A stretch of 64,000 nt of DNA from assembly GCF_902713615.1 (NCBI RefSeq), contig NC_052146.1:183571469-183635468 (forward strand). The letters run 5' to 3'. Positions 19,551 to 22,439 of the stretch are shown here, one piece after another. The position numbers were made by a program, and so were the translations under genes. Numbering within the stretch: position 1 is the stretch's first letter; each line of letters begins with the position of its first letter. The DNA is from Scyliorhinus canicula. Its lineage: Eukaryota. The notes under the pieces were generated by a model, which saw only the letters and a list, made by a program, of their open reading frames with translations, did not search any database and was not told the origin of the DNA.

Positions 19551-22439
19551 ATGGCTGATCCAGATGAAAGTATAGATTCAGACCCTTTAGAAGGCAGAAA
19601 TTTACTCCCTACGACGGTAAAAGGAGGAACTGGGATACCAGATGTTTCCATTGAAGATATGTTGGGGGATTTTGGGTCTTTCTTTCGTAAACAATTTGAC
19701 CTATGTGAAACCTCAAGAAAAATTGAATCAAAGTATAATATCCGCAGAGGACAGTGGTCCTTTGATAATATCAAGAGAGCATGGGGAAAAAGCACACGAT
19801 TGCACAGTGCAGAACGTGTTAAATGGTCCCTGGCAATTATGGGACAATTACGCAGACAGCAAGAGATAATTACTAAAAATAAAACTGATCATGAGTATAG
19901 GACCACTAAAGACCAACTAATTGCAGATGTTGAAGAATTGCAAGATGCAAAAGCAAAAATTGAATCTGACGATGAAATTAGAACTGATTTGGAAAACAAA
20001 ATCTCTGCTGGAGCAGTTGCCTGTTCAAATAGCAGAAGTACAAAATCAAATTGCTGAAGTGGAATCACAAAACCAACAGCTGCAATCAAAAACTGAGCAA
20101 ATTGAACTTGAAAAGTACAAGTTAATTGAAGAAAAATGTGTTTTAGAAAAAGAATTGCGAGATGCAGAATTCAGTTTTGAACAGGATGATGCCAAATTCC
20201 AACAGTTATCTGTTCTATTAGCAGAATTCCAAAATCAAATTTTTGAAGTGGAATCAAAAAACCAAAAGCTGCAAGCAAAAACTGAGCAAATTGAACTTGA
20301 AAAGTACAAGTTAATTGAAGAAAACTGTTTTAGAAAGAGAATTGCGAGATGTAAAATCCAAATTTGAACAGGACGATGAACTTAGAACAGAATTGCAAAA
20401 CAAAACTTCTAAACTCCAGCAGTTATCTGTTCAAATAGAGTTCCAAGATCAAATTTTTGAAGTAGAGTCAAAATACAAACAGTTGCAATCAAAAATTGAT
20501 CAAACTGAACTTGAAAATTCCAAGTTAATTGAAGAAAAATGTGTTTTAGAAAAAGAATTGCAAGATACAAAAGCAAAACTTGAACATTATGATGAAATTG
20601 GAACAGAATTGCAAAACAAAACTTCTAAACTCCAGCAGTTATCTTCTCAAATAGCAGAATTACAAAATCAAATTTTTGAAGTGGAGTCAAAATACCAAAA
20701 GTTGCAATCAAAAACTGAGAGAATTGAACTTGAAAAGTACAAGGTAATGGAACAAAAATGTGTTTTAGAAAGAGAATTGCAAGATGCAGAATCTAAACTT
20801 GAACATTATGATGAAATTGGAACAGAATTGCAAAACAAAACTTCTAAACTCCAGCAGTTATCTATTCAAACAGCAGAATTACAAGATCAAATTTTTGAAG
20901 TAGAGTCAAGATACCAAAGGTTGCAATCAAAAACTGAGCGAATTGAATATGATAATTGCAAGTTAATCGAAGAAAGATATGTTTTTAAAAAAAGATTTAA
21001 ACACTGCGACTGAAAGGGGCAAGGTCCTAAAAGACTGGATTCAAACAGCAGCTGAAGTAACACAAACTCAACAAGCAGCCCACCTAGTGGCACAATTGGC
21101 AAATGCACAGCCGAGATCAATTGTCAAGAATAAATTAATTCCTCTGCCAAATGAATCAGACGAAGATAGTGTTCCTACAAAGCGTAATACTAAATTAATT
21201 CAACTAGCCCCTTTAAAACGCAAACGGGTTAGAGTTGGAAGCAAAAAAATAGAGGAAGAAGGTGAAACTATCTCTAGAAACATATTTGATCATCAATGGA
21301 CTCAGGAACCAGCAGAGCCTGCACAAATTGACGAATGGTCCAAAAATCTCCCACATCCTAAAAAGGGTGGTATGTCCACATGGAATGGAATTAACAGATT
21401 AAAATCCATTTACAGTCTCCACCCATTTGATGGAGTACAAGTTCTGACTATCATGCTCGGTACTCGCGTAATTTCAACCCTTAGAACTGAGGTGGAATTT
21501 GCCCTTGGAGACGATTTGCAAAATTTAGACGCTGGTTGGCTAGCAATCAGGGATTGGCTATTAACATATCGCCCCCCGAGGACCGATTGGTCTAAGATCA
21601 CATCTTGCATTCAAAAAAGTAATGAAGATATTCAGGATTTTGAGGACAGATTTTTACAGACTTGGATGGAATATTCGGGAATGACACTTACAGACGAAAC
21701 TGACGCATGGGATGCAAGCAATTTAAATCCATTAAAAACGGCTTTTGTAGCCGGTGTTAAACCTGAGGTTTCTGATGCCTTGAATTTGGTTTTACCATCT
21801 TGGGCCAAAACTGGCACATACCGAGACATAGTTGACCGGTGCATTCAGATAGATCGCGGTTTACGCAATCGGACAAGCTCATCAGCAGTGACTAAAGCAC
21901 CACCACAAAATTCAGGGCAAACATGTACCCTGGCTCCATTAAAATCACGTAAGGAAAATATACCACAATGTCTTTACTGCGGTAAAGTAGGACACTGGAT
22001 GGCAAAATGCTATCTTAAACCACGGATGGATTCGAGAGATGATAATGAGGTAGACAATTTTCACTACAATACATTTCCACCTCGTGGTCAACCACGTAAT
22101 GCGCACAAACAAGATGCACCTAGGGTAACGTTCCAACAAGACAGACCCAGACTTACGTACAGGGATTCTAAAACCTCCCAACCTTATCCATGTGGGGAGG
22201 AACCTTATCCACGTAGGGAGGAACCTTACCCACGTAGGGAGGAACCTTACCCACGTAGGGAGGAACCTTACCCACGTAGGGAGGAACCTTACCCATGTAG
22301 GGAGAAATCTTACCCACATGGGGACGAACCGTACCCACGTAGGATTCTACACGATGATAACAATGCTATGAATGAAATGTTAAACAGCTGTCCTCCAGCT
22401 CAAAGACGTTCTCTGTGTGATAATTCAAAAAACTACTAG
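19551..22439 (+). pseudogene. gag: ERV gag, copy 1 (coiled-coil repeats, CA, one CCHC knuckle; frameshifted)
   Basis: ORF pieces 19551-20057, 19921-20367, 20315-21013 and 20979-22439; MHR-like QKSNEDIQDFEDRF; CLYCGKVGHWMAKC. Confidence 0.88.
22181..22343 (+). repeat. 21-bp coding minisatellite, about 8 x PYPRREE (copy at ~31754-31916)
   Basis: ACCTTAYCCAYGTAGGGAGGA units in frame at the Gag C-terminus. Confidence 0.9.

Follow-up and report, generated by a model that had tools for sequence, protein, structure and literature searches.

Retroviral Gag lies radially in the immature particle, whose radius is about 50-65 nm, and is believed to have little freedom in length. How did a catshark provirus come to hold a Gag with some 350 residues of tandem repeats ahead of its capsid, and what might they do there? 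The locus lies in a 64,000-nucleotide window of the Scyliorhinus canicula genome (contig NC_052146.1, positions 183,571,469 to 183,635,468), the whole stretch of DNA analysed here. A sequence-only reading had described the repeats and proposed a rod-like spacer, oligomerisation or host-interaction domain in a possibly undescribed endogenous retrovirus (ERV) lineage.

Provirus anatomy and Gag architecture

The provirus has the layout of an orthoretrovirus-type ERV (Table 1), with a primer binding site that we take to be tRNA-Ser-like. It is present twice in tandem (18012-27735 and 27592-37309, 99.8% identity over 9.7 kb, three LTRs), a duplication missed in the sequence-only reading. The second copy repeats the Gag array at about 29515-30565, and gag, pol and env are broken in both copies. 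The few differences between the copies cluster in array unit 1 (19895-20054 against 29475-29627); elsewhere the two match exactly for some 9 kb, a pattern that a gene-conversion tract or an assembly mosaic would leave. Each downstream LTR is preceded (27566-27920; 37140-37530) by a 28-bp LTR start and a copy, about 330 bp long, of the 5′ flank, itself the 5′ end of a LINE (18012-18340). This arrangement points to a post-insertion rearrangement that would then have duplicated the provirus. The provirus is inserted in the 5′ end of a minus-strand non-LTR retrotransposon (13980-18340; ORF1 at 17175-18164, with an endonuclease-like ORF downstream), and further LINE fragments lie around it.

Table 1. 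Features of the provirus, in window positions
Feature	Position	Strand	Remarks
Provirus, order LTR-PBS-gag-pro-pol-env-PPT-LTR		+	target-site duplication around the pair
5′ LTR	18341-19232	+	892 bp, TG...CA
5-bp target-site duplication	18336-18340 / 38439-38443		brackets 5′ LTR and last LTR
Primer binding site	19235-19252	+	from sequence
Splice donor for env mRNA	19389-19391	+	joint 19388/9 to 25700, GT..AG
gag	19551-22439	+	963 codons
Gag N-terminal domain	19551-19865	+	no Gly2, four-helix model
Predicted coiled-coil array, five units	19935-20992	+	frame broken in window copy
Gag linker	20993-21290	+	acidic patch and basic LAPLKRKR motif
Capsid domain	21290-21870	+	ESM Atlas Gag_p30 cluster; profile matches to PDB Gag chains
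CCHC zinc knuckle, single	21969-22010	+	
Second Gag repeat, 21-bp (7-aa), C-terminus	22180-22343	+	ends in YPRRIL
Slippery heptamer A AAA AAC	22427-22433	+	end of gag
pro-pol	22424-25907	+	PR, RT, tether RNase H, RNase H, IN, MLVIN_C; broken in window copy
env, gamma-type	25909-27268	+	TLV_coat, furin site, ISD, CX6CC; broken near 26450-26484
Second tandem copy	27921-38438	+	LTR 27921-28812, gag 29131-32012, pol, env, LTR 37531-38438

Anchor mapping places five units of 63-73 codons, starting at 19935, 20152, 20339, 20555 and 20774, and Tandem Repeats Finder returns a period of 219 (20194-20995, 3.7 copies, 86% matches, score 1154), in agreement with the five imperfect repeats first described. 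The window gag is split into four overlapping frames, with breaks near 20005-20055, 20315-20365 and 20967-21013. Its full span, together with natural five-unit sister copies that are open for 949-990 codons, bears out the earlier estimate of about 960 codons. The protein does start MADPDE, with no Gly2, and relatives begin at the same Met. In an unbroken natural sister copy the units measure 73, 63, 72, 73 and 73 residues, with pairwise identities of 54-75%.

The coiled coil suspected from the letters was borne out by prediction on this sister. Over array residues 96-492 (397 residues, with 1 Pro, 4 Gly and a net charge of -25), the heptad score is 5.53 against 4.16 ± 0.15 (maximum 4.62) in 500 shuffles. 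Heptad d positions are mainly Leu, Val or Ile, and a positions are Leu, Ile, Lys, Thr and Asn. Each full unit shifts the register by three (73 = 10 x 7 + 3), a stammer. A single-sequence fold of the natural full-length Gag breaks the helix at the same part of each unit; this is a low-confidence model (pLDDT 43.5), used for helix and breaks only. A complex prediction with two copies of a three-unit fragment scored 0.02 and gave no answer. The array is thus predicted to be a coiled-coil rod, which at 0.1485 nm per residue would extend for 59 nm, or 11 nm per unit.

The N-terminal domain carries a net charge of +6 over residues 34-105, and its net charge is positive in 36 of 37 relatives. Its model (pLDDT 86.5) has a helix continuing straight into the array, and the domain is likely the equivalent of matrix. 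A Foldseek search of viral and PDB libraries gave no match to it at E ≤ 0.001, and no foamy or Fv1 chain stood among the best 50 structure matches listed. The acidic patch and LAPLKRKR motif of the linker keep the same relative position in teleost relatives. The capsid falls in the ESM Atlas Gag_p30 cluster (0.93, 187 of 256 features), with profile matches to Gag chains in the PDB. The CCHC knuckle taken alone scores below the Pfam cut-off; capsid, CCHC nucleocapsid and a spliced env are all present, as in an orthoretrovirus-type ERV. The YPRRIL at the C-terminus is presumably a YPx3L late-domain-like motif. The 21-bp repeat there (EEPYPRR) also occurs, with variants, in S. torazame. Several teleost relatives have YPxL motifs directly after the coil; the window Gag has only the YPx3L-like motif at its C-terminus.

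Downstream, pro-pol lies in the -1 frame. The A AAA AAC heptamer is kept in 28 of 31 copies, and its spacing to the protease motif is identical in all 29 measurable copies; the RNA fold downstream of it (z -1.3) gave no clear stimulator. Judged from the frame and the heptamer, pol may be expressed by -1 frameshifting. MMTV, HTLV and EIAV are known to shift frame at the same heptamer; gamma- and epsilonretroviruses, SnRV, SSSV and ZFERV, by contrast, read through at gag-pol, according to the accessible parts of PMC3835772 and PMC13517186. Env is nevertheless gamma-type (TLV_coat, E 1.5e-14) and the integrase C-terminus MLV-like (MLVIN_C, E 5.5e-16), a pairing at odds with the usual practice of letting the mode of translation mark the gamma/epsilon branch. 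Against MLV-type and foamy RT, PR-RT scores 171 and 155 bits, respectively; an RT search of viral contigs gave no match.

env is open for at least 400 codons in 5 of 11 copies examined. Among the 10 of 20 loci that gave a long env match, shared TM variants have a pN/pS of 0.27, private and shared variants not differing significantly (p 1.0 and 0.42). The open copies and the low shared ratio are consistent with recent enveloped spread. The cytoplasmic tail of Env carries a late-domain-like PTAP (27219-27230), which 10 of 11 copies keep. No indexed RNA run is on record as holding family sequence. In the raw RNA reads examined, transcription is low-level with reads across all regions, and leader-to-env splice reads (2, 4 and 3) occur in three of four runs; these speak for the family, not the window locus.

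Copy number, unit number and origin of the array

The DNA search scored 40 places at 94-100% among 223 candidates, so the family occupies at least 40 places. Open gag frames of 818-990 codons from start to zinc knuckle were found in 13 of 78 fetched sister loci, with three (2 copies), four (6) or five units (5); the array is thus a viral trait common to sister proviruses. Could it nevertheless have arisen at the window locus after insertion, or in assembly, given that a provirus in tandem at 99.8% might itself be an assembly duplication? Dozens of unlinked loci show the same order and spacing of units, divergence is about 15% between units but 1-6% between copies, and all four runs have RNA reads over the array, at low depth. 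We give a local or artefactual origin of the array next to no credence.

On a capsid tree of 56 copies (midpoint root), one branch, supported at 98/94, parts 50 multi-unit copies from the 6 with a single unit; the tree omits 23 of 79 loci, which lacked flanks, and for two copies the number of units was assigned manually from the spacing. The multi-unit copies comprise 29, 15, 4, 1 and 1 with five, four, three, two and six units, respectively, and the five-unit and four-unit labels each change 13 times on the tree. As the initial copies had been picked with the array, 20 further loci were picked by capsid against ascertainment bias, 12 of which retain both flanks. At capsid identity ≥90%, 4 of 4 hold three to six units; at ≤80%, 7 of 8 hold one unit and the eighth is ambiguous. 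Searching with array and capsid separately, as had been proposed, thus finds multi-unit copies among the young and single-unit copies among the older. A near-identical protein is annotated from S. canicula, and relatives at 68-75% come from S. torazame, the cloudy catshark, whose Gag P0006 has one unit. In its P0001, P0002 and P0010 the same region is expanded otherwise, with 7-14-residue pieces and a duplicated long unit.

A single unit in older copies and in S. torazame, with one multi-unit clade, argues for growth by internal duplication rather than host capture. By this sequence comparison the array arose by internal duplication from one unit, with units still being gained and lost. Capture of part of a host coiled-coil gene might be suspected from the NCBI name of P0008, ‘cilia- and flagella-associated protein 58-like’, and from weak Pfam and Atlas matches to generic coils. 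P0008, however, is itself a copy of this Gag, with N-domain, five units and linker; the Pfam matches of the array fall below cut-off save a marginal TPR_TmcB (26.6 against 27), Atlas recognition (1254) is of mixed families, and single-unit viral copies explain the repeat. We consider capture of the array very improbable; the single unit could conceivably be an old capture, the genome search having scored 150 of 669 candidates. Copies of this Gag are meanwhile being annotated as host genes (CFAP58-like), and the gene model of P0009 shows an apparent fusion to a host follistatin-like tail.

Selection on the array and its possible role

The in-frame divergence of the units had been read as a mark of coding constraint, which holds for the frame and not for the residues. 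Array indels shared by at least three copies are in frame in 5 of 5 cases, against 4 of 20 for those in one or two copies (p = 0.002; 5 of 6 if one four-copy frameshift is merged), and unit spacings common to several copies (189, 198, 216 and 219 nt) are all multiples of three. Under neutral simulation at the observed 15.5% divergence, five units stayed stop-free in 1 of 2000 runs. pN/pS in the array is 0.45 for shared and 0.91 for private substitutions (p = 0.023, one of four regions). Loci L033, L026 and L027 (indel-rich or rearranged) and W2 and L002 (duplicates) were left out of the substitution and indel counts; the substitution counts also omit, for the regions concerned, five capsid-deleted and three 5′-truncated copies.

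The dN/dS comparison between units that had been called for gave a gap-aware omega of 0.85, against a neutral 0.66 with a 5-95% range of 0.42-0.96; ungapped values of 0.70-0.81 were discarded as biased by the gap in unit 3. Neither proline avoidance nor hydrophobic class nor helix preservation went beyond chance. At the level of sequence, selection kept the array frame open, with unit residues nearly free and amino acids diverging at the neutral rate. An open frame with a neutral omega indicates that the units were part of a coding element, and one that replicated, while they diverged.

We think it probable, with room for doubt, that one segment of the Gag which the provirus already had was amplified in tandem, giving what is likely a segmented coiled-coil stalk that joins a probable matrix domain to the capsid and whose length is tolerated. 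The basic, non-myristoylated helical head would bind membrane, and the coil that follows, which teleost relatives have in a short form, would self-associate and aid Gag multimerisation in place of myristate. The Leu-rich d positions and mixed a positions suggest a parallel, low-order coil. Every added unit may bring its 11 nm together with one stammer, a possible hinge; with such hinges the rod probably folds or lies obliquely instead of standing 59 nm radially. Template switching during reverse transcription, or else unequal recombination, could add and remove units. Most likely the added length is tolerated, and under no more than weak selection, as long as the reading frame remains open into CA, NC and Pol. 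An apparently constrained and spliced env is consistent with an enveloped virus.

Lengthening might instead be adaptive, if the long rod enlarges the particle or changes its layering, binds a host coiled coil or transport adaptor, or lets the virus escape a Gag-targeting restriction factor. None of the treed multi-unit copies has collapsed to one unit, and the young copies picked by capsid are all multi-unit, but the first copy set was chosen with the array and the distribution of unit counts fits stepwise loss from five. The same region has been expanded with other units in S. torazame (P0001, P0002, P0010) and Alosa (P0024), and shared variants are denser in the array, at about 0.22 per codon, than in N-domain and capsid, at about 0.06; omega, however, is not above the neutral range, and single-unit viruses evidently replicated for a long time. 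LINE-1 ORF1p offers a precedent, in that its N-terminal coil varies by heptad duplication and deletion, has a required stammer and is thought to be tuned (PMC5940361, in the part available), although this is analogy only, with an unrelated trimeric protein of 14 heptads (15 nm) and no particle envelope. On balance we regard adaptive lengthening as possible but rather unlikely. A host-interaction role, as raised in the sequence-only reading, was overstated, and nothing in our results supports it.

A bolder reading, which we put forward as improbable, is an undescribed fish-and-shark lineage, with gamma-type Env, pol frameshifted by -1 and a Gag that lacks myristoylation, whose catshark members carry a selected, hinged rod of ~59 nm from matrix to capsid and an unusual particle architecture. 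If true, the rod would be as long as the virion radius, and the particles would be larger or differently layered than those of any retrovirus imaged so far. On the tolerated-stalk reading as on this one, one genome holds a natural length series of one, three, four and five units, in frames that are or once were open and with a predicted coil of about 19 to 59 nm, which makes the effect of matrix-capsid distance on particle size and assembly directly testable.

Relatives and known systems

Teleost ERV Gags (Pimephales, Cyprinus, Labeo, Esox, Alosa, Gadus, Astyanax and others) are true homologues, with capsids 31-37% identical (E to 1e-44) and the same N-domain, acidic patch, RLAP motif and CCHC. 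Unlike the catshark Gag with about 400, they have about 30-100 heptad-like residues of coil, about 50 being typical. Across 44 non-catshark proteins of homologous layout the median spacer is 131 residues, against 417-500 in the catshark family, and Alosa (P0024) is the only teleost relative with a repeat there (14 residues). An MG start occurs in 1 of 47 Met-starting relatives. The databases searched give none of them a virus name. In 14 of 28 longer relatives the Gag protein ends in GN, as it could at a shift site of the G GGA AAC type. Judged at protein level, this suggests that an entire lineage of fish ERVs may pair gamma-type Env with frameshifted pol.

Gamma- and epsilonretrovirus Gags carry a Gly2 myristoylation site. 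The catshark element, with its MADP start, differs from them in this, and from them as well as SSSV and ZFERV in that gag and pol do not lie in a single readthrough frame; gamma-type Env and the MLV-like integrase C-terminus it shares with this group. Its CCHC knuckle (21969-22010) also sets it apart from spumavirus/ERV-L (class III) elements, which lack zinc knuckles by the rule in the accessible text of PMC1224870. In foamy Gag-NtD a head domain and a coiled-coil dimer stand in for the myristoylated matrix (PMC3649970, in part), but foamy Gag is without zinc knuckles and foamy Env is different, whereas the catshark element has CCHC and gamma-type Env; the Foldseek search of the N-domain found no foamy chain at E ≤ 0.001 or among the best 50 matches listed. 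XtERV-S of Xenopus shares the Ser primer, 5-bp target duplication, non-myristoylated Gag and gamma-type Env; by the available part of its description (PMC8278194), it differs in lacking a zinc finger and in having a dUTPase, readthrough pol and a 530-residue Gag.

A published catshark ERV, ERV-Spuma.0-Sca, has similar dimensions (9220 bp, LTR 866, gag 752 codons; PMC10699275, in part), but its listed start differs from the window LTR and the accessible text reports no Env domain. Eight of ten short motifs are absent from the supplements and the other two occur in other records, though in supplement text that is broken or cut such absence is weak. It appears to be another element. The accessible parts of three shark ERV surveys (PMC4422223, PMC4977317, PMC10699275) describe no such Gag, and those of PMC5210030, PMC8672886, PMC6431247 and bioRxiv 2024.07.05.601823 hold nothing relevant to the array. 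In the openly accessible papers searched, the array appears to be undescribed.

The earlier suggestion of an undescribed lineage with an unusual Gag therefore stands in that no description was found, while the type of coil was already known. SnRV and Ovex1 Gags are non-myristoylated with a myosin-rod-like coiled coil, and SnRV Gag has a basic N-terminal stretch with predicted coil (PMC2717909, in part). By description rather than sequence, SnRV resembles the catshark element in its non-myristoylated coiled-coil Gag, single zinc knuckle (PMC1224870, in part) and fish host; it differs in its in-frame readthrough (PMC13517186, in part) and accessory ORFs (PMC12193657), where the catshark element has pol in the -1 frame, a 350-residue tandem array and no accessory ORF noticed between env and LTR. 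In chicken Ovex1 the coil, of about 50 residues (62-114), also precedes the capsid region (PMC2717909); as far as the available text goes, Ovex1 is a single ancient locus with readthrough pol and no zinc finger, whereas the catshark family has CCHC and is multi-copy and young. A non-myristoylated Gag with a myosin-like coil is thus already known; what is new in the catshark is its length, a predicted ~59 nm if extended, and its accordion-like variation.
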